DNA of 62,788 nt, counting the filler, from Stramenopiles sp. TOSAG23-2 (lineage: Eukaryota), in the NCBI GenBank assembly GCA_900128395.1. It is 9 parts of 9 records of this genome, joined end to end, with 100 filler letters (N's around TTAATTAATTAA, not from the genome) between each part and the next. Parts side by side here need not be neighbours in the genome. Positions count along the whole stretch, not along the records: positions 15,356 to 22,923 come from LT650300.1; 8 more parts are not named here. One strand, 5' to 3'. Positions within the stretch are counted from its first letter, which is position 1. Every line of letters starts with the position of its first letter. A program made the translations under genes and the position numbers. The notes under the pieces are model-generated. The model saw only the letters and a program-made list of their open reading frames with translations, did not search any database and was not told where the DNA came from. This document shows positions 15,356 to 53,388 of this stretch, one piece after another.

Positions 15356-16226
15356 CGTGATGATGATAAATGAAAATTTACCAAATCATATTGCAAATAA
15401 TCCAAAGTTACAGGAAATAATGAAAGATTTCTTAAATGCATATTTTGATGGATATCAAATAAAAAGCATCAACGATGAATTATTAAATATTGGAAAAAAG
15501 AAAGTTACATCGCATGGTTTAACTGTACGAAGTGCTAGAAATGGAAATGTACGATTATTGAATGTTTTAGATTTACTTGATGTATGCCATGAAAAATTAC
15601 CAAATGATGCTTATTGTATTTTAGGTATAACCGATCAAGATATCTATGAATACGATGCGAAAGGTAGGGTACCTTATGAATATTTGGATGGTTGCTTACG
15701 TGGCCGTGCATTTGGTGGTAGTCGAATTGCTGTTTTTAGTACAGCATGTTATGGTCGATCAATAGAAGAATCATTGTCGAATGTAACAACACCTAGTAGT
15801 AGTAATAATAATAATGATAATAGTAATAAAAATAACAAGACCATCACCATGTCTAATAATAATAATATTTATAATGATTTCGTTTATCAATTAAGTACAT
15901 TAGCTCATGAAACTATGCATTGTTTTGGTTTAGATCATTGCGGATTATACATGTGTTGTATGAATTCTTGGAATGATGCTATTGTTGAATTTGCAAAAGT
16001 ACCTTTGGCAAATGGTAGAAAACTTCAATATGATGATGATGTTGAAGGATCGATTCATTTATGCCCATTGTGTTTAAGAAAATTACAAATAACATGTAAT
16101 TTTGAGATTGAAACTCGATATAAAAAATTACATACCTTTTATAAAAGTGTAGGATTACATGACCAAACAAAATGGATTGAACATGTTTTAAGAATTGGAA
16201 AAGAGTTAGTATCGAAAGGGAAATAG
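15356..16226 (+). CDS. Archaemetzincin (peptidase M54)-like zinc metalloprotease, 5'-truncated at contig edge
   Basis: DAYCILGITDQDIY, HETMHCFGLDHC-x4-C-x-MN, LCPLCLRKL, RYKKL..FY. Confidence 0.88.
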
Positions 16227-18222: not shown

Positions 18223-19605
18223 ATGGATACTGGTAATAAGTATCATGTCAATGACTATAAAACAAAAAAAATTGAGATTGTGAGTGACACTGATACCAAT
18301 CATAGTAATAGCAATATTGGAGATAAGCATAGTTATGATACCGTATTTAAAGAAATCGAAGAAGAGGAGAAAGAAGAAAAAATTATGGAAAGCAAACTAG
18401 ATATAATCTCAAAATCTGAGCTATTGGCAGAAATGCCTGTACCCTTTCGTTTAGCAGCAAACCTTGTATTTTTATTTGAAAGTGACACTCATCCTATTAA
18501 ATTTATTTTGAAATGGGTTGCTGTCGTAGCGAGTATATTCACTGGCGTGATTTTAACGTTAAACTTCCAGTTGAATGGGCAAACAAAATTTAGTATTGGT
18601 AGTGTACCTACACCGATTTGCTATTGTATTTATGGCCCAATGTCGATCATAAAAGTTCACCATTTTTTCAATGGCAATGTAGGCCGGTCCACGTTTTTAA
18701 AGTCTTGGAAAAAATTGCCGATAACCTCAAAGCAGTTGGCAACAAAATATTTTTCAACTTTCCTAGTTGGTCATCTCATTTTCGCAACAGTCGGCACGGT
18801 CGGCCTGCTTCAGGTTTCGTTTGAAGGTAGGCCAGAATGGTTTGTAACGACGTTCATGATATATAAGTTTATGCATATTTACACATTCACTATTGGGCTT
18901 ATATTGTATTCTGAATTTTTAATATTCATAATGGTTGTAGAAAGTGGAAGTATTGCATGTCAAATTAATCGAATGTCAGAAAAGACCAACAAAGCCATAT
19001 CTTTTTTTTTTGAATCCGATGATGGCGGTGATGATAACATAAACGAGTTAGGTCATACAAAATCAATGATGATGGAAAGGAAGATAATTAGTCGTAAAGA
19101 TGCAAAAAGAATAATTAAAATTTTCATTCAATCACTAAAAAAAATTGCAGCAAACGTGAAACGATTTGTTCACATTTTAGGTAGCTCACTTGGTTTAATC
19201 ACAATATATCTAATTTTAATTATAATAGTGAACCCTTTCCAGTTTGTCGTCCAGAGTTTCAAAAGTGATTTTATTCTTGATATTGGTCAGTTAGTCGGAT
19301 TGATTATGGGGGAAACATTATGGATGTATGCATTGTATATGATGTTAACATTATCCATGAAGCCTTCCATAGAATATACGCTTTTTTTGAGATCATTACA
19401 TTGCGGTGATAAGGTATTTATTTTATCTGAGTGTTTTAATGGTGAGAGCAAAAAATTTTTTGATGGATTAGAAATTCAACGGCAAAGTGTCATTTGGAGT
19501 ATATTTGGTATTCCGGTAACTTTAGAAATGTATGAACGTGTAATTGGTTCGTTGGTAAGCTTACTAATAGCAGCTTTAGCATTGATTTTACGAAGTAGTG
19601 GGTGA
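18223..19605 (+). CDS. Seven-TM protein, 7TM ion channel (insect GR/OR-like, GRL/DUF3537-like) candidate
   Basis: Seven hydrophobic segments, long loops after TM4 and TM6, terminal WSIFGIPVT...VIGSLVSLLIAALALILR. Confidence 0.6.
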   Translation: MDTGNKYHVNDYKTKKIEIVSDTDTNHSNSNIGDKHSYDTVFKEIEEEEKEEKIMESKLDIISKSELLAEMPVPFRLAANLVFLFESDTHPIKFILKWVAVVASIFTGVILTLNFQLNGQTKFSIGSVPTPICYCIYGPMSIIKVHHFFNGNVGRSTFLKSWKKLPITSKQLATKYFSTFLVGHLIFATVGTVGLLQVSFEGRPEWFVTTFMIYKFMHIYTFTIGLILYSEFLIFIMVVESGSIACQINRMSEKTNKAISFFFESDDGGDDNINELGHTKSMMMERKIISRKDAKRIIKIFIQSLKKIAANVKRFVHILGSSLGLITIYLILIIIVNPFQFVVQSFKSDFILDIGQLVGLIMGETLWMYALYMMLTLSMKPSIEYTLFLRSLHCGDKVFILSECFNGESKKFFDGLEIQRQSVIWSIFGIPVTLEMYERVIGSLVSLLIAALALILRSSG

Positions 19606-20075
19606 AGATTGAATGTAATTGAACTCTCGTTTTATGTTTAATTTACGCGTGTGCGTATCATTTTTTATGCTGTTACATCAAACTAATTGAGTAAACAAGA
19701 AGAAGACACGTTTAACGTGACCATTACTATTATCTAGTACCAAGTTATAAGTATAAAATAAAGTGTTAAAACTTTCCCAACTAATCCGCAGTCCTTCACC
19801 AACCTTCCCAACATAAAAATAATTAAGGCAACAATTTAACCGTTAATCAAAGTATAATCCCATGCTAATTAATTCAAATCTCGGTTACTAATGCTATTAT
19901 ATCCAACCAATTTCAGGTTGGTTAAGGAAAGTTTTACATTACCAAACGCGAATTTATGTTTATACGCAAATTTTACGAAAGTTTGCCCTTCTCTCAAGTA
20001 CAAAAAGTACCTAATATGACCTATCAAATATAGCAAACACTACAAATCTACTGAGTATATGAAACGGACTTCATT

Positions 20076-32835: not shown

Positions 32836-35336
32836 ATGAAAAAACGTTTAGCACAACAATCCTTTGGTGGTAGCTCGTCTGTGCCACCGAGTAAAAAATC
32901 CAAATATGGTGCAGAACAACAACCGGCAACAAATGAACATGGACTTGAATTTGTAAAGGAAAGAAAATTGGAAGCATTGCAAAGTACGTTTAAGCAGAAG
33001 CAAATTGAAATACGTACGTTGCGTGTTGAAGCAGCGAAAGAGAAATTAGAAAGTAACAATGCTCAAGCATCATTAAGTGCGTTTAGTAGGCAATGGGATG
33101 TTTTGAATCACGACTTATCAACTATGGCGGAAAGACTAGGAATTGACAAGGCAAAAGCTGCAAAACCAGTTGTAAATTCGATATTAAAGGATTATTTTAA
33201 AGCAGGTGTTGAAAATAGTGAAGCACACACAACAAATTTTTCATCGAAACTTCATTACATAGTGAAATTATTAGGTTTACCAGATGATGATGACGACGAC
33301 GAAGATGATGATATGGACGGTAGTAGTAGTAGTAAAAAGAAAAAAGGTAAAAAGAAAAATGGTGGCAAGGATGAGGAAGAATTTGAAAAAATCAAACAAA
33401 ATGCTGAAATTAGTTCACGCTTGATTAGTAAGCAAATGGACAATGTTACGCAGAAAAAATTAGCGACAACACGACAATTGATTGAAAACATAATGAATAC
33501 TATTGAAGGTAAGAATAATTCAAAAAGTATATCTTCAAATGAATTGATCTTAACTTTAGAAACAAAGGAAAAAGAATTAATAACACGTTTACATGCGTTG
33601 GAAGATGTTAATGCTAAATCTGCATTGGAATTGAAGCAATTAATTACAAAGAATGAAATGGAAAAAGATATTAATCAACGTTTATTATGGAGGATTCAAC
33701 GTTATATTAATAATGGTAGTGACAATAGTAAAAATAATACGAGCAGTGGTTCATCCTCCTCCTTCTCATCAACAACTACTATAACTAAAACGGAATCTAA
33801 TAATAATAATAATAATAATAGCGAGGATCAAGGAGAATTACAAAATCAATTAAATCAATTAAAGAAAGAGAAGAATAATGAATTGAATTTATTGAAAAGT
33901 AATCTGGATCAAATTAAGAAAATAAGTGATGATCGTGAAAGTCAAATTGAGACTTTAACTAAGAGTTTGGTTGAATTAAAAAATGTTATACGAAAATTAA
34001 GAAGTGATAGTCTTGGAGAAAAAGATGAATTAATTCAATTACGTGACTCAAAAAATAAATATCAAAATGATTTGAATAAGTTATCCGAGGAATTGAATTT
34101 AGAAAAAAAAGCTATTGCTAATTTACGAAAAGATTATGATATGAAAATTCGAAACTTTAATGAAGATCTGAACAACCAAGCTACAAAAGACCGTGATTCT
34201 GCACAGAAATATACTAAATATGCAGATGAATTAAAAATTAAATTGAGTGAAGAACAACAAAAAAATAAACTTTTATCTTCCTTAGAAGAGCAAATACAAA
34301 CGCAAAAGCAATTGTTGCAAGGAAACGAAGCTGCAAAAGCACGTGTTGAAAAGTTATTAACAATCGTTGAAAGTAAAAACAAAGATGAAGAGACGAAGGC
34401 ATTATATGATGAGCTTGCAGAAGTTGAGAAAGCATATGGGGAACAGGAAGAATTGAATGGTAAATTGTCTGAAGAATTGACAGAGACAAAACGAACTAAT
34501 CTCAAATTGCATTCAGAGAAAAAAAAAGCTGAACAAAAGGCAAATATCGAAAAGCAAAAAAATGATTTATTGCAACATGAAGTAGCAGTGCTAAAGAAAA
34601 AGCAGATACCACTTGAAAACCGTATATCAGATCTAGATCGTAGTTTTAAACAATTAGAACAGACAAATTTAGATAATCAAGGAAAATTAGCAATGGTTGA
34701 AAAAAAAAATAAGGAATTAATAGCAATACATGGAGATGGTGATAATAGTAATAATAGCACAGGAGGTATGCAAGGGGAAGAACTTAGAAAAGAAAATGAC
34801 TCATTGACACAATCGTTGCAAACAAAAGAGACGGAAAATAAACGATTACTTGAAAAAATTAGTATATTGGAGAAGAAGAATTCAACATTAAAAAGTGAAA
34901 ATAAAAGTTTAGTAAAGCAAAATGGTGGTGGGACAAAGTCAGCTCAAACATTAGCAACTATTTTGAAAGCATTGCATTGTACGATGGATCAAAGTTTACC
35001 AAGAAATTGTGTTATACGTCGATGTGGACATACATTTTCAGAAATAAAATTGATGGAAGCATATAATAGTAGAAGGAGAAAATGTCCTGAATGTGGTATT
35101 AAATTTGATATGACAGATGTTATCAAGTTCAATGTAGAAGAAAGACAAGTTAACGATAGTAGTGATGACAAAGAAGAAAATTTAATATTTGAAGATTTGC
35201 CAAAACTATTACAATTTGGTATCAACTATTCTTTCCACGGAAATAAATGTGTTAAATTAGTAGAAGGAGAAAATGTCCTGAATGTGGTATTAAATTTGAT
35301 ATGACAGATGTTATCAAGTTCAATGCATTTATATAA
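32836..35336 (+). CDS. BRE1: BRE1-like E3 ubiquitin ligase (coiled coil plus degenerate C-terminal RING); the annotated C-terminus is disturbed by an insertion
   Basis: Long coiled coil, RQW..L..DL, ELAEVEKAYGEQ, RING-like C..D...CGHTF...RRRKCPECGIKF...DV. Removing the 191-bp insertion/duplication restores ...DVIKFNAFI* ending at 35336. Confidence 0.75.
35132..35258 (+). repeat. 127-bp copy of 36489-36615 inserted between two copies of a 68-bp segment (35067-35134 and 35258-35325)
   Basis: Exact sequence identity read directly. Confidence 0.9.
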
Positions 35337-36457: not shown

Positions 36458-37639
36458 ATGACGTCTTACAAAGTATCAAGTGATGTTGATGTAGAAGAAA
36501 GACAAGTTAACGATAGTAGTGATGACAAAGAAGAAAATTTAATATTTGAAGATTTGCCAAAACTATTACAATTTGGTATCAACTATTCTTTCCACGGAAA
36601 TAAATGTGTTAAATTTGTTGCTGTAATTTCGTGGTTTACTTTCATGGCTATCATGTCCTTTCTAGTTTTTGGACTTGGAATTTTCGATAATTTGTATTTT
36701 GGTTTTATTTTTTTTCCATTGTTGTTACATTGTGGTTATGCTTTTTTTGGGCATACCAATGAATGTTTTAAATATAAACAAACAAATTCTCTGTTATTTG
36801 ACATTATTGGATCTGATAAAAAAATTGCAGTAAAAATTACAAAATTTTATAAATATGTAACACTTTTCTTTGTATACATAAGCGTTGTGCTGATAATAGT
36901 AGTAGGCGTTTTTATAATGCCCGCATATTGTGCAAGGGCTGGGATTGAGGGCGTGTTGGCATTTGTTTTCATACTCTTAGGTTCTCTAGCGAATGTATGT
37001 TGGTCCATATCATTTAATCTCGGTGTCGGCTTAGACATTGCTGTCTTGATTTTTTACAAGGATTATCGTGTTAAATGTTTACGATCATATTTAGATTCAG
37101 TACGAGATACTTTATTAAAATTAAAGGATAACGATGATAATATCATTGAAGTCGATCTGTTAAGTAAATTAAGAAAAGAACAAAGTAATATTGAAAAAAT
37201 GGCAACAAAATATAATATTGCTTACAGTAAATATTATGGAAATCAAACCACAACATATTTTATATGGACGTTTGGCCCATTAGCAACAACATTTTTGACA
37301 AAAAATTTGTTTGGCGTAATATTCTGCTGTGTCGTGGGCATATCGTTTTTACCGTTTGTATTCGGTGACTTATGGTTATGTGCTATGGTAAATGTTGAAT
37401 GGAACAAAGCAATTAAAAAGAAATTAAAAGGTTGGGATTTAGCACCAATAATTAAAAAAATTTTTGGAAACGTTAGTGAATTTGAATCCTATTTGCATTC
37501 ACATGAAGCTGGATTTTCAACTGTATTTGGTGTTCCTATAACGTTTGATTTATTAAAAAAATTTGTTGGATTAGTCTGTTCTGCTTTTAGTTTATTAATG
37601 TATCTAATTGCCAGAAATGAATTTCAAAAAGCGTTGTAA
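36458..37639 (+). CDS. Seven-TM protein, second 7TM ion channel (GRL/DUF3537-like) candidate
   Basis: Seven hydrophobic segments, CAMVN after TM6, terminal GFSTVFGVPITFDLLKKFVGLVCSAFSLLMYLIAR. Confidence 0.62.
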   Translation: MTSYKVSSDVDVEERQVNDSSDDKEENLIFEDLPKLLQFGINYSFHGNKCVKFVAVISWFTFMAIMSFLVFGLGIFDNLYFGFIFFPLLLHCGYAFFGHTNECFKYKQTNSLLFDIIGSDKKIAVKITKFYKYVTLFFVYISVVLIIVVGVFIMPAYCARAGIEGVLAFVFILLGSLANVCWSISFNLGVGLDIAVLIFYKDYRVKCLRSYLDSVRDTLLKLKDNDDNIIEVDLLSKLRKEQSNIEKMATKYNIAYSKYYGNQTTTYFIWTFGPLATTFLTKNLFGVIFCCVVGISFLPFVFGDLWLCAMVNVEWNKAIKKKLKGWDLAPIIKKIFGNVSEFESYLHSHEAGFSTVFGVPITFDLLKKFVGLVCSAFSLLMYLIARNEFQKAL

Positions 37640-38345
37640 AGATAAGGAATAAGTAGTATACACAAATATATAGAAAAATAAAATATATAATATTTATATA
37701 TATATGATATAAAAGGCGAGAGGGATGTAAACGTGTAGACTTTAAAACATTACCAGGTATATTCATATTTTAGTCTGGAAAAAGTAATATTCTTCTCCTA
37801 GGTAATTAGATTACCTGGTAATGCCTATCTATAATTTAGTTGCTTTCCTATATTCCCTGGTATTCTAGAACCTATAGAAGAACTGCAACAACTTCCAGAA
37901 CCCAGAACTTACATTTTGTTTTGTCGAGGAGATCAGCACATAAGGGGGATAATTTAGTACTTGGTAGTATAATAAACAGTAGCTATGATTATCACTTTTT
38001 CCAGCCTGATTAAAAATAATTTCAGCAAAAACGAAAATGTTTGGATCTTCAAATTTGTACAGAGGTATTTTAACACAGTATAATGATACAACTATGTTAT
38101 TCCTTTATATATATCTATGCTGAAACAAAACAAAACAATATACGGTTTTGTATAAGAAATAAATATGTCACATACAACAAGAAGACATTGATTAAATTTA
38201 TGAAAAGAAAATTGACAAAGAAACTACTACAACAATAATAATAGTNNNNNNNNNNNNNNNNNNNNNNNNNNNNNNNNNNNNNNNNNNNNTTAATTAATTA
38301 ANNNNNNNNNNNNNNNNNNNNNNNNNNNNNNNNNNNNNNNNNNNN

Positions 38346-45529: not shown

Positions 45530-45988
45530 TGGCTATGATACTTGAGAAAGAGGCTGACAATTACATACGTGGGCATTTAAAATGTAAGAGACGAACATTT
45601 TTATGGACAATAATCCACCACGTACGAACTTACTTAAAAAAAAATAAAGAGCTGAAGAGCGCTAGATCAAAAAAAAATACGGGTTCGTATATTATTAATA
45701 ATATTAAATTTTCTCTTAACTTAAATTAATTTTATTTTTAAAATAATATACGAAGTATGATGATAATTATTCTACACATGCATATAAATAATATTCATAA
45801 TATCAAAACAAGTATCATAATTTATAATTTATAAAAAAGTATTTTTATATTAATACACACGACACACGCGGAGCAACAGGAGAGTGTTNNNNNNNNNNNN
45901 NNNNNNNNNNNNNNNNNNNNNNNNNNNNNNNNTTAATTAATTAANNNNNNNNNNNNNNNNNNNNNNNNNNNNNNNNNNNNNNNNNNNN

Positions 45989-47289
45989 CTAACATCCCCA
46001 CCAACTAATTTTAAATAACGTAATATTAATTTTGCATTTGCATTATTTAAATAAAAATGACGTTGGTTTGTTGCTGCAGTGATTGTCACTAAATGATTCA
46101 TATCCGTATTTGTACCAACAATTTCTAATATATTTGTAACAAAAACATGAGCATCGCCTGATATCGTACAATTAGTTGAACGATTGAAATTACCAGTATT
46201 TGTTGTTGCGGAGCAACCCCAACCCAATTGGCATTGGAATGTAGATTGCGGCACAGATGTTGCAACCGATACGGATTCAATTGGGCTAGATCCAGTTGCA
46301 CATCCATAATCACATAATACGCCTAATTTATTATTGGCGTTGTTTACTGCACTGCATGTGCCAGTAAATGGTTCTTCCGTGCATAAATTATTTGAACATG
46401 TTTTCCATATTGCTTCATTCCACAAGTTAATATTATTTGTATTATTGAAATAGGTATTTATTAATGATATGGTTGGTGACCAAGATGTATATATTTCATC
46501 ACCATTACTAGATGCATCATTATTGATAAATGATGATTGACGGAGGATGACTGTAGTGCTATCACCTGATATATAGAGGCCGCCTCCATGACTAGCATCA
46601 TTATTTGATATGATTGTATTCTTCATTGTTACAGCACTGTATCGTATAGACATACCACCACCCCATCTTACGTAAGAACTAATACCACTAGAGCTAGCTT
46701 GATTATAATCTATGGTAGTATTTGCTATAGTACCAACAGCTCTATACATAGAAATACCACCACCATCACCATAAGAAGCTTCATTATTTTGAATAATACT
46801 ATTATATATATTCATAATCGCATTCTTATTCGTACTACTATCACCTTGTGCATATATTCCACCACCATTCTCAGCTTTATTATTAAATACAATAGATGAA
46901 TATAAATTTAATTCACCACCGTTTTCATAAATTATTATTGATCCACCATGATAATCAGGCCAATTATAACTACTAACATCCCCACCAACTAATTTTAAAT
47001 AACGTAATATTAATTTTGCATTTGCATGATCTAAATAAAAATGACGTTTCGTATTCGCAGCAGTGATTGTCACTAAATGATTCATATCCGTATTTGTACC
47101 AACGATTTCTAATGTATTTGATACGGCAACATGATTATTACCTGCTATGGTACAATCAGTTGAACGCGTAAATGTTCCTGTGTTGGAAGTGGACGCACAA
47201 TTCCATTCAACACCATTCATAAAACAACACCCAAACGCAAAAAATTGCAACAATATAAAAAGTATCTTCTTATGACTATGGTTTTCCAT
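45989..47289 (-). CDS. Secreted Pmp-like (GGxI/FxxN) right-handed beta-helix repeat protein, 3'-truncated
   Basis: Signal peptide after MENHS. Repeats FNNKAENGGGIY, NEASYGDGGGI, NNDASHGGGLY. The N-terminal module is duplicated nearly identically (46972-47115 vs 45989-46130). Confidence 0.8.
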
Positions 47290-49806: not shown

Positions 49807-51363
49807 ATGAAACTAGATAACATACAAATATTCATAACATATATATTCCTTCTCGCTATTATAGTGGAATCGAAACAAACGAAAATCAAACCACAAATAC
49901 GTACACCATTGCGTATACGTAATTATCATCATAAAATAATTAAAGAAGCAAATGAAATATATCAAAAATATGGATATTCTCACGTGAAAAAACACAACAA
50001 TAATAATAATAATAATAAAATTCTTCCTGAACATGACGGCGATGGTAATAGTAATAATAACTACGATAAAGTGAAAAAGTATTTATCTGAACATCATATT
50101 TCACCTCATATAAATAAGCATGATGTTTGGAAACCACCATTACCACCAGTTAAAGAACGTTCTGGAGTATGGGCATCAATTGCACCAGAAGATAAAACAC
50201 ATTATCATATTATGCAAGAACATCATCATATATCACATCGTCGTAAAAAAAGGCATGATAGGTTAGATCATCAAATAGCAAGGCAATTGAAAGCGCATTG
50301 CAAAACAGGGCCAACGATAACATATCGTACATACCATAGAGATATTAGTGAAAATTTTAGATATTTAATAGGTGCCATTATCTATACATTAAATATGAAT
50401 TCATCATTAGTTTTACGTCCACCAATTTTAGATTATCCTGGTGTACAAATGAAAAATAAGACAAATGAAATATTAGAATTTGGATGTTTTCCACCACAAG
50501 TTAAACATAAAGGTGGTGCACATCGTTTATTTTTATTAGCAGCTACGATGCAAGGTTGCATGGAACCAATATTAGCATGTTCCAATCCAGCATGGATACC
50601 ATCATTATATACATCGATTAAATCACACCATTTCAATACACGTAATACAGTCATTGATTGGAATGTATGGGAAGAAAAAAGTAGCCCGTTTGGTATTTAT
50701 AGTGAAATTATGGAAATGTCAGTTAATGATTATTTAGATATACCATCCATATATTATAAAGGATCACGTTGGGTATTAGTTCGTAATATTGCAAAACGTA
50801 TATGGCGTTTGTCTCCGCATATGAAAGGATTAGCAAGGCAAGAAAAAGAATCATTAAAGAGAACAAATGATATACGTATTGGTGTCCATTTAACACCATT
50901 ACGTTCCTCACCATCTAAATTAGCTGGAAGTGGTAGTCCACCAGGATTTTTTTCATCTGGAGCTGCAACGAAAAGTAATAATAATAAAGAATCACCATTT
51001 GCAATTTATTTAATGGCAATGGAACGTGTATATAAGAAAATACAAGATTTAAATAAAAAGGACAAAAATGTGGGAAAACATGCATTTATTTATGCTACAA
51101 ATAAAGACGAGATAGAAACATTTAAAAAACAAGCAAAAGAAAAAGGTTGGGAAATCGTAACAGTTAGTGATCGTTGCCGTAATGATGATGATATCTTATA
51201 TATCAAAACTACATGTGAAGTAATTGCAATTGATATTATGAGTGAAATGGATTATTTTATTGGTGCTGCAAGTAGTGGTTTGTCATGGACAGTACAAGCA
51301 GTGCGTAAGCAATCATTGTCAACTGGAATTAGTGTAGATGATCCATGGAGTCAACGTATTTGA
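49807..51363 (+). CDS. Secretory-pathway protein with fucosyltransferase (GT23/NodZ/FUT8)-like C-terminus
   Basis: N-terminal signal/anchor; IGVHL, FIYATN, IDIMSEMDYFIGAASSGLSW..QAVR resembles the D...L...D.FVGT.SS motif. Confidence 0.55.
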   Translation: MKLDNIQIFITYIFLLAIIVESKQTKIKPQIRTPLRIRNYHHKIIKEANEIYQKYGYSHVKKHNNNNNNNKILPEHDGDGNSNNNYDKVKKYLSEHHISPHINKHDVWKPPLPPVKERSGVWASIAPEDKTHYHIMQEHHHISHRRKKRHDRLDHQIARQLKAHCKTGPTITYRTYHRDISENFRYLIGAIIYTLNMNSSLVLRPPILDYPGVQMKNKTNEILEFGCFPPQVKHKGGAHRLFLLAATMQGCMEPILACSNPAWIPSLYTSIKSHHFNTRNTVIDWNVWEEKSSPFGIYSEIMEMSVNDYLDIPSIYYKGSRWVLVRNIAKRIWRLSPHMKGLARQEKESLKRTNDIRIGVHLTPLRSSPSKLAGSGSPPGFFSSGAATKSNNNKESPFAIYLMAMERVYKKIQDLNKKDKNVGKHAFIYATNKDEIETFKKQAKEKGWEIVTVSDRCRNDDDILYIKTTCEVIAIDIMSEMDYFIGAASSGLSWTVQAVRKQSLSTGISVDDPWSQRI

Positions 51364-51822: not shown

Positions 51823-53388
51823 ATGTCTTGTTGTAAAAATATAAATTTAGATGAAGCATTTGCATACGAAACTACAGCACAAATTAAGATAAAAGATAAA
51901 CGTCTTGGAATTACAAGAATGGCGTTATTGTTCTTTGCATTTATTTATGTTATTGTTTATAACATCATCATAAGTAAAGGTTGGGCAAAAGAACTGCCCG
52001 TTCGTGGTGTATCAAAAATTGTAGGTAAGAACCCAACAATAAGTGGCATAGATGGTGAAAAAAATTGTTATTGTTATGGCGGATCACATAGTACTTTATG
52101 CGGGAACCATACTTGTCATGATTCATATAGCGATTTCACGGACTTGCCATATTGTACAGATTCAACATCACCATATATAATTGATAAATTGGAAATGAAA
52201 CAGAAACGGTGTATTCGAATTGACTCAATGGATGTAATATTTGATAATGGCTATTCAACATTTCTGTCAACAGAGATCCGCTATATGTATCAAAGCTATA
52301 ACAATGCAGTTATTGATAATCCAACGGAAGCAATTGTTAAAAAATTAGGTAAAATGTGGAAAGAAACTACACATCCATTTATACCAAATTTTTTTAACAT
52401 AAACTTTTATGTTTCTGATATAGAAAAATATACCATTTTACTTGAACATGCTATCGTTCGCCCTGATGATAATAAACATGCTAAAACGTCATCTTTGCAA
52501 ATTGATACAGGTGTTTTAAAATCAAAAAACAACGCATATTGTAGGAAACTATATGGAAACGAACAAGGGGAAAATGTTAAGAACATTTATAAATTCCCTG
52601 AAACAACAGATAAAGGCACTTTTTATTGCGATATCCATCCAAAAAAAACATATGATTGCAAATCATGCAAAACGAAAACATGTGAGGTAGATGAATGTGG
52701 ATATGATTTATACGAGGTGGAAGAGTTACTATTAGCAGGTATAGTTGAACCAGATGGTATGGCACCGGTGATAAACCCGTTAGATAAGGGAATTCTTAAA
52801 AATTCCAAGTATCCATTACGAGGCAATGGTTTCATCATGGAAGTGTTTATTACATATACTGATGAAGTCCACTATAATTCCATATCGACAGGACGTTTGA
52901 CTTACTCTTATTCTGTTGATTTACTTACAGGTCCACCAAATGCCCAGAGCGGGACACAGCAGACATGGCAAGGGACAAGATACGTCATGGAAAAACATGG
53001 TATAAGTATAAAAACTATTGTTGATGGATCATTGCATGTCTTTGACCCCCAAACTTTACTTGTACAAATGACTTCTGTACTAGGTTTAACATCTATTATA
53101 GCATTGACAATTGAAATGATTATGTTAAAATATTTGAATGTAAGTGGATATTATAAATCGATGAAATTTTCAGAATCTATTGATTACAATCGTTTAAAAA
53201 CTATTTCTGCCCTTAAAGATAAAAATTTGCAAAATTTATCACAGAAAGAAATTGAGACACTAGTAGATCAAGATAAAAGGAGTACTGTATGGGAAGATCA
53301 AACTCAAATTGAAATGATGCATCATGATTTAAGTGAAAAGGAAAAAATAAAAAATAAAAATAGTTGGAAGAATTTAAGTGGTAAATGA
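51823..53388 (+). CDS. P2X receptor-like two-TM ion channel
   Basis: N-terminal F.YET...IKDKRLG, TM1, Cys-rich ectodomain, IEKYTILLEH, KHGISI, TM2 (SVLGL...IE), C-terminal YxxxK (YKSMK). Confidence 0.82.
   Translation: MSCCKNINLDEAFAYETTAQIKIKDKRLGITRMALLFFAFIYVIVYNIIISKGWAKELPVRGVSKIVGKNPTISGIDGEKNCYCYGGSHSTLCGNHTCHDSYSDFTDLPYCTDSTSPYIIDKLEMKQKRCIRIDSMDVIFDNGYSTFLSTEIRYMYQSYNNAVIDNPTEAIVKKLGKMWKETTHPFIPNFFNINFYVSDIEKYTILLEHAIVRPDDNKHAKTSSLQIDTGVLKSKNNAYCRKLYGNEQGENVKNIYKFPETTDKGTFYCDIHPKKTYDCKSCKTKTCEVDECGYDLYEVEELLLAGIVEPDGMAPVINPLDKGILKNSKYPLRGNGFIMEVFITYTDEVHYNSISTGRLTYSYSVDLLTGPPNAQSGTQQTWQGTRYVMEKHGISIKTIVDGSLHVFDPQTLLVQMTSVLGLTSIIALTIEMIMLKYLNVSGYYKSMKFSESIDYNRLKTISALKDKNLQNLSQKEIETLVDQDKRSTVWEDQTQIEMMHHDLSEKEKIKNKNSWKNLSGK

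Follow-up and report, generated by a model that had tools for sequence, protein, structure and literature searches.

Seven-transmembrane ion channels (7TMICs) comprise the odorant receptors (ORs) of insects and Orco, the gustatory receptors (GRs), the gustatory receptor-like proteins (GRLs) of animals, the DUF3537 proteins of plants and many proteins of protists (PMC7746228; 10.1101/2023.08.30.555482; these papers and those below are cited for the parts of them that were available). Members are characterised by seven transmembrane helices (TM1-TM7), an intracellular N-terminus and an extracellular C-terminus, intracellular loops (IL1-IL3) longer than the extracellular ones (EL1-EL3), long TM4-TM6 and a split TM7 (PMC7746228; 10.1101/2023.08.30.555482), the splitting of TM7 by a hairpin being described for the insect receptors (PMC12635824). 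In the available parts of the literature (PMC7746228; 10.1101/2023.08.30.555482; PMC9998090), 7TMICs outside animals are without functional characterisation. The present analysis concerns a gene at positions 18223 to 19605 of the plus strand of a 62,788-nucleotide stretch of DNA from Stramenopiles sp. TOSAG23-2 (GCA_900128395.1), the whole of which is referred to below as the window. Its product, P0001, is predicted to share the fold of these channels. Since 7TMICs outside animals are already known, the P0001 family adds a member and not a new kind; going by its model, it is a new, sequence-orphan and divergent branch of the known superfamily.

That P0001 has the 7TMIC fold is very likely, judging from its predicted structure. 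An AlphaFold2 model computed from 26 family members, down to about 21% identity, has a mean per-residue confidence (pLDDT) of 78.6 and a predicted TM-score (pTM) of 0.76, with pLDDT below 50 only at residues 1-36 and 265-287. When this model was compared by Foldseek with 350,542 PDB chains, all 23 matches listed down to rank 24 were insect ORs, Orco or GRs (E 6.6e-5 to 7.9e-2, probability 1.00, 396-443 columns, TM-score by target 0.42-0.60). The next match was a transporter (E 0.26, probability 0.12, TM-score 0.12), and beyond rank 24 no match has an E below 0.26 or a probability or TM-score above 0.21. The structural match spans the whole chain, from residues 54-72 to residues 454-458. VIA-align 2, which is independent of Foldseek and was run on 48,161 representative chains, likewise placed the receptors at least 6 Z units and about 200 aligned residues above unrelated chains. 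An earlier, sequence-only reading had taken 18223-19605 for a channel of the OR/GR superfamily and had proposed comparing an AlphaFold model with Orco and GR structures; the similarity that it anticipated was found by both programs and, as far as fold and topology are concerned, its assignment is supported.

The helix limits used throughout were taken from the model's secondary-structure string; they give the following parts.

18223 to 18411, plus strand: N-terminal tail (residues 1-63), hydrophilic and acidic, presumably cytoplasmic.
18412 to 18477, plus strand: candidate re-entrant S0/TM0 (residues 64-85), hydrophobic, with helices 64-70 and 73-81, named by analogy to ORs.
18493 to 18561, plus strand: TM1 (residues 91-113), a model helix with a hydropathy peak at 95-113.
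18607 to 18669, plus strand: TM2 (residues 129-149), a model helix, weakly hydrophobic and below the hydropathy threshold.
18721 to 18810, plus strand: TM3 (residues 167-196), a model helix following the K/R-rich IL1 (150-170).
18835 to 19014, plus strand: TM4 (residues 205-264), modelled as helices 205-223 and 226-264 and extending into the cytoplasm.
19015 to 19092, plus strand: predicted disordered acidic loop in IL2 (residues 265-290), with pLDDT below 50 at 265-287.
19093 to 19257, plus strand: TM5 (residues 291-345), beginning in the cytoplasm, membrane part about 315-345.
19282 to 19401, plus strand: TM6 (residues 354-393), membrane part about 354-376, the remainder cytoplasmic.
19405 to 19491, plus strand: cytoplasmic helices 395-404 and 409-423 (residues 395-423), the latter being TM7a, a candidate element of the anchor domain; strongly conserved.
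19492 to 19521, plus strand: predicted beta-hairpin with WSIFGIPVT (residues 424-433), strands 426-427 and 430-431, splitting TM7.
19522 to 19599, plus strand: TM7b (residues 434-459), candidate pore helix, with invariant Y437 and R457.

All structural features of 7TMICs that could be tested are present in the model. The seven helices pack as in ORs, TM4-TM6 are long and reach into the cytoplasm (helices 205-264, with a kink at 224-225, 291-345 and 354-393), and TM7 is split into a helix (409-423), two strands (426-427/430-431) and a last helix (434-459). At 460 residues, the protein lies within the usual length range of about 350-500, and its extracellular loops (15, 8 and 8 residues) are shorter than its intracellular ones (21, 75 and 57 residues for IL1, IL2 and IL3); the IL1 of about 21 residues lacks the length that marks the PHTF-like Class B. 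Lysines and arginines are distributed very unequally, with 37 in the N-terminus, IL1, IL2 and IL3 taken together and three in EL1-3 and the C-terminus. By the positive-inside count over the loops of the model, this points to an N-in/C-out orientation, the opposite of the N-out arrangement of G protein-coupled receptors (GPCRs), which the sequence-only reading had named as the topology that would speak against it.

Several sequence features had been noted in that reading, and most of them held. Long loops after TM4 and TM6 correspond to the 75 and 57 residues between membrane parts, WSIFGIPVT is found just before the last helix (residues 425-433, nt 19495-19521, followed by helix 434-459), and the proposed lack of a signal peptide agrees with composition and hydropathy: residues 1-63 contain 16 D+E and nine K+R, and the first hydrophobic segment begins only at residue 67. 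Seven hydrophobic helices had also been counted. The count was reproduced by the Kyte-Doolittle scale (19-residue window), with seven segments of mean at least 1.4 starting at about 67, 95, 180, 221, 318, 357 and 440, five of which attain 1.6, but the assignment differs, as the first segment is the candidate S0, and TM2 (129-149) stays below the threshold and is visible only in the AlphaFold2 model. Of note, TM0/S0 is not used as a criterion for 7TMICs by Himmel et al. 2023, as far as the available parts of that paper go (10.1101/2023.08.30.555482). One claim was not confirmed, namely that F.xFG.x(I/L)(T/D) is a hallmark of the superfamily; the only signature motif named for it in the available parts of the literature is (T/S)Yhhhhh(Q/K/E)(F/L/M) in TM7 (PMC7746228; PMC12635824), itself described as diagnostic, not definitive (PMC7746228).

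Conservation along the P0001 family follows the pattern of insect ORs, in which, according to the available parts of one survey, anchor and pore are conserved and the pocket-forming N-terminal part is the most divergent; across 7TMICs in general, too, conservation is highest in anchor and pore (10.1101/2023.08.30.555482). Among eight diverse full-length members, mean pairwise identity reaches 0.40 in the cytoplasmic part of TM6, 0.46 in TM7a, 0.53 in the hairpin and 0.43 in TM7b, and ranges from 0.13 to 0.29 in all other regions, the hairpin (424-433) being the most conserved segment of the family. P381, S382, W425, Y437 and R457 are invariant in a 15-row alignment, and W425 and T433 are nearly invariant across the family alignments. 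R457, only three residues from the C-terminus, corresponds along TM7b to the region of the Q/F gate of GRs, by position only. In seven close relatives (81-95% identity), 68 of the 128 columns in the outer helix halves and extracellular loops are variable, versus 88 of 332 elsewhere (Fisher p 1.7e-7). Variability between these close paralogues is greatest in EL2 and in the outer halves of TM3 and TM4 (67-77% of columns variable, versus 16-25% in the C-terminal module). The ratio of nonsynonymous to synonymous substitution rates (dN/dS), computed by region against the related locus L003 (see below), is 0.71 for TM3-EL2-TM4, 0.21 for the C-terminal module and 0.14 for IL1.

The gene itself is real and goes beyond a chance open reading frame (ORF). 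It is an intron-less ORF of 1383 nt (460 codons plus stop) whose ATG is the first in frame, with an in-frame stop six codons upstream, and the public protein cluster P0002 has a sequence identical to P0001 over all 460 residues. Its length in DNA of about 31% G+C, the relatives down to about 21-36% identity, four intact copies elsewhere and the dN/dS against L003 all argue against chance. The window is AT-rich (G+C 0.28-0.40 in 2-kb windows), and the host is a marine, AT-rich unicellular eukaryote in which the ORFs examined are long and uninterrupted. Contigs from RNA libraries (four libraries from three studies, labelled marine or seawater) cover 18420-19719 at 95-100% identity and without joints, which fits an expressed, intron-less gene and, together with the dN/dS of 0.40 against L003 and the intact copies L001-L004, speaks for a genuine gene; such contigs may contain DNA, and transcript ends cannot be read from them. 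Upstream of about 18420 only short pieces from a single run were found, which allow no inference on the transcript start. In one library, X3, the contigs end loosely at 19451-19456. The paralogues P0005, P0006 and P0009 carry a five-residue insertion after residue 410, which matches the place of these breaks; the loose ends may be paralogue-derived and, if so, paralogue transcripts or DNA share the same samples.

Relatives of P0001 were sought in several ways. A word-indexed search returned 12 proteins, each 55-100% identical to P0001, and two profile searches of the same collection added only P0042 and P0057. An exhaustive HMMER search of 1.84 billion representatives gave 29 proteins at E at most 1e-3 (20 at 1e-10 and six at 1e-30), among which are near-full-length relatives at about 21-36% identity. 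The longer members have 400-468 residues, and P0001 has several paralogues at 60-95% identity. Family proteins bear no Pfam domain, with the exception of the fragment P0056, which bears that of an unrelated family. No sources other than ENA, EukProt, JGI, Logan and MERC are named for the members, from which it is probable that the AlphaFold-database screen of published 7TMIC surveys did not include the family. A scan of metagenome contigs with a 7-row alignment yielded four loci out of 182 pattern matches, each with one intact single-exon copy (dN/dS by the Nei-Gojobori method, with the window gene as reference).

L001: copy at 98% identity to the window gene, dN/dS 0.60 from 10 differences only.
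L002: copy at 96% identity, dN/dS 0.59 from 23 differences.
L003, positions 4977 to 6371 of its contig: copy at 60% identity, dN/dS 0.40 and dS 0.63, contig G+C 0.30.
L004, positions 3195 to 4538 of its contig: copy at 24% identity, contig G+C 0.35.

Values of 0.40-0.60 indicate a sequence that is constrained, but not tightly. Apart from the family member, L003 shares no gene with the window and is thus a paralogous or non-syntenic locus. Neither L003 nor L004 has a second family copy nearby or any synteny with the window, and within these two pieces the family is dispersed, not tandem.

Searches at the sequence level gave no link to described chemoreceptors. A Pfam scan of P0001 with E up to 10 gave only a chance-level match and none to 7tm_7, 7tm_6, Trehalose_recp or DUF3537 (PF12056); nine relatives and P0014, a second candidate of the window described below, had no relevant Pfam match, and the same four families were absent among the 25 listed for 26 members at E up to 10. 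Family-profile and single-sequence searches of PDB sequences, again with E up to 10, returned no OR and no GR. The C-terminal 88 residues, searched separately against PDB sequences, showed a chance-level resemblance to a zinc-finger linker only, and to no chemoreceptor. P0001 therefore falls outside the strict animal GR/GRL family (7tm_7, PF08395), as delimited by hidden Markov model or sequence similarity. When 24 aligned members were inspected by eye, no register of the last helix fitted (T/S)Yhhhhh(Q/K/E)(F/L/M), a motif that is likewise not recognisable in fungal and plant members according to the available parts of PMC7746228. In a protein-language-model atlas, 14 of the 30 clusters nearest to P0001 belong to the gustatory-receptor set (PF08395 in 92% of members, score 0.95).

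Compared with the solved insect OR, Orco and GR structures, namely 8v3d (AgamOR28), 7lic (MhOR5), 8v02 (AaegOR10), 8vc1 (BmGr9), 8z9a (ApisOR5-Orco), 8jm9 (DmGr43a), 8jme (DmGr64a) and 6c70 (Orco), the modelled P0001 is alike in length, seven-helix packing, N-in orientation, short outer and long inner loops, long TM4-TM6, a hairpin-split TM7 and a C-terminal third that is the most conserved. It differs in its low identity (7-13% in the structural alignments), in having no 7tm_6 or 7tm_7 match and no TYhhhhhQF-type motif, and in marks of its own, i.e., a W-x-x-F-G-I-P-x-T hairpin and two invariant residues of TM7b, Tyr at its start and Arg at its outer end; its host is a unicellular marine eukaryote, unlike the insects of the solved receptors. 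The protist GRLs and the Class A Euk7TMICs, in the available descriptions, share with it a length of 350-500 residues and an OR-like fold (PMC7746228; 10.1101/2023.08.30.555482), a TM7 motif that is weak or missing, a scarcity or lack of introns and a small family size, with one to six or more copies (PMC7746228), as well as the short IL1 that sets Class A apart from the PHTF-like Class B (10.1101/2023.08.30.555482). Sequence similarity to GRL or DUF3537 was absent in the Pfam scans. With the plant DUF3537 proteins, P0001 shares long IL2 and IL3 and, according to the same partly available literature, the superfamily fold (PMC7746228; 10.1101/2023.08.30.555482), whereas no DUF3537 match was seen for P0001 or among the 25 Pfam families listed for 26 members, and the conserved C-terminal motif is specific to the P0001 family.

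Should P0001 work as the solved receptors do, a mechanism can be outlined by analogy. According to the available parts of PMC12635824, TM4-TM6 and TM7a hold the four subunits of these receptors together, the TM7b pore opens at its outer end, ions exit through lateral conduits under the hairpin loops, and the ligand pocket lies among the outer parts of S1-S6. Four P0001 subunits would accordingly be joined through the cytoplasmic ends of TM4-TM6 and TM7a, with TM7b of each subunit lining a central pore; the outer halves of TM1-TM6 would form a pocket for a small ligand, whose binding would open a gate at the outer end of TM7b, and ions would leave the pore through lateral conduits beneath the hairpin loops. 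A tetramer run with four copies of residues 211-460 gave a score of 0.00, but as the alignment went unused in it and the fragment had no certain fold of its own, this score speaks neither for assembly nor against it. Membership of the 7TMICs is the reading that we consider probable; by analogy with the insect receptors, a tetrameric, ligand-gated mode of action would go with it. Common descent with 7TMICs, as opposed to convergence, is likely, while a ligand-gated channel with a sensory role, suggested by fold and conservation pattern, comes somewhat short of an even chance.

Several points weigh against this reading. The sequence-level link to known 7TMIC families is missing in both the Pfam and the PDB sequence searches, the GR signature motif of TM7b is not recognisable in the family, and the invariant Arg at the outer end of TM7b is without counterpart in the Q/F gate of GRs. 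Evidence for the fold consists of one predicted model; an earlier model, for which 11 close sequences were used, was of poor quality (pLDDT 43.1), and the TM-scores of 0.37-0.60 and root mean square deviations of 5-10 A of the structural matches are only moderate. The topology was derived from a charge count over model helix limits, not from a topology predictor. The recognition value of P0001 by the language model, 2053, is below the mark of 2300, which makes its gustatory-receptor neighbours only a weak lead. Finally, alignment columns are not independent in the Fisher comparison, and the 'variable pocket' pattern may in part be trivial, since membrane helices tolerate hydrophobic exchanges.

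What else could P0001 be? The missing sequence similarity to 7TMIC families in Pfam and PDB sequences, together with a single confident model drawn from 26 sequences, would suit an unrelated seven-helix membrane protein whose OR/GR likeness results from convergence or from an artefact of prediction with a shallow alignment, and the authors of a structural screen warn, in the available part of their paper, of possibly convergent matches (PMC9998090). Such an origin is nonetheless very unlikely, given that the match covers the whole chain, including the unusual split TM7 and the long TM4-TM6, that the receptors stand at least 6 Z units and about 200 aligned residues above each unrelated chain in VIA-align 2, that no other membrane-protein family reached a Foldseek probability above 0.21, and that the conservation pattern agrees with the fold. 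The AlphaFold2 weights were trained on structures predating the first Orco structure (release date 2018-08-22 in the Foldseek listing), which also counts against an artefact. A classical GPCR, with seven helices and N-out/C-in topology, would share the seven hydrophobic segments and have a similar length, but its charge distribution would be the reverse of the 37 versus three K+R found here, no GPCR is present among the Foldseek matches listed or the best 50 of VIA-align, and the sole GPCR match of the sequence searches is at chance level (E 1.3, with no stretch passing alone); this identity is extremely improbable.

A more serious competitor is a true 7TMIC relative that is not a chemoreceptor, having instead a housekeeping or intracellular role, or acting as a channel that is constitutive or differently gated, a suspicion that exists for GrlHz, which is broadly expressed, and for the PHTF proteins, to which no function has been assigned. 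It would sit well with the absence of the GR gate motif and the invariant Arg at the outer end of TM7b, with the unrelated housekeeping genes that surround 18223-19605, and with the lack of a tandem array in the window, L003 or L004; moreover, the available parts of the literature assign no function to 7TMICs other than those of insects. Set against it are the several paralogues at 60-95% identity, whose differences are concentrated in the outer helix halves, the ligand-binding part of insect receptors, and an overall dN/dS of 0.40-0.60, which is fairly high, a level characteristic of receptor repertoires and less so of housekeeping channels. On these grounds, a role outside chemoreception appears unlikely, and a 7TMIC acting as a ligand-gated channel is preferred.

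The window contains a second, far more divergent 7TMIC candidate, P0014.

36458 to 37639, plus strand: P0014, 393 aa, with seven hydropathy peaks.

As in the P0001 family, an FG-x-P-I-T motif (FGVPIT) stands in its C-terminal part before the last helix. An hhalign comparison with the family profile gives a probability of 77.6% (E 1.9e-5) over 84 C-terminal columns, and its language-model neighbours include 7tm_7 (gustatory-receptor) clusters; on these sequence features, P0014 is a candidate for the same fold as P0001. Separately, 35132-35261 and 36489-36618 form a 130-nt direct repeat (99% identical), through which the 5' coding part of P0014 recurs within the 3' end of the ORF 32836-35304; a 73-nt duplication (35062-35134 and 35253-35325, 97% identical) flanks this copy. 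The arrangement at 35062-35325 reflects a local rearrangement or else an artefact of the assembly.

Other ORFs of the window carry domains of eukaryotic kind: Leo1, a UBC-IBR ubiquitin enzyme, TPR repeats, a FANCE-like domain, a BAHD transferase, arabinofuranosidase B, a C-type lectin, a succinate dehydrogenase flavoprotein, a P2X-receptor-like protein, an MFS transporter and Reeler. The P2X-like ORF (51823-53388, plus strand, 521 aa) has a match to PF00864, the family of ATP-gated P2X receptors, over the C-terminal part of that family (E 6e-9) and is another type of ligand-gated channel in the window; the adjoining ORF, 49807-51363, has no Pfam match. A 289-aa ORF at 15357-16226 (plus strand) has an asparagine-rich tract and the sequence HETMHCFGLDH, which resembles a motif of the zinc-metalloprotease (metzincin) type, and no Pfam match at E at most 0.001. 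Runs of N near 38294-38345 and 45937-45990, which are assembly gaps, lead to X at the C-terminal ends of two minus-strand ORFs. An Rfam scan of the window gave no match.

That the P0001 family is invisible to Pfam and PDB sequence searches suggests that structural screens of annotated proteomes miss branches of the superfamily. A further, tentative and rather unlikely reading is that the family represents a repertoire of ligand-gated chemoreceptor channels in a marine protist, the paralogues of which would differ in what they sense, and whose outer pockets would have diversified according to the dissolved compound and in which a ring of arginines would replace the Q/F gate; such a ring at the outer mouth of TM7b might confer a different ion selectivity, possibly for anions. 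If true, this would be among the first ties of a non-animal 7TMIC to chemosensation, and the arginine ring would be a natural variant of the gate. Because they are short and intron-free, with contigs of RNA libraries covering the P0001 gene and with several paralogues that differ mainly at the parts that bind ligands in insects, the genes of this family are convenient candidates for heterologous expression, and hence for asking whether the 7TMICs of protists are ligand-gated channels.

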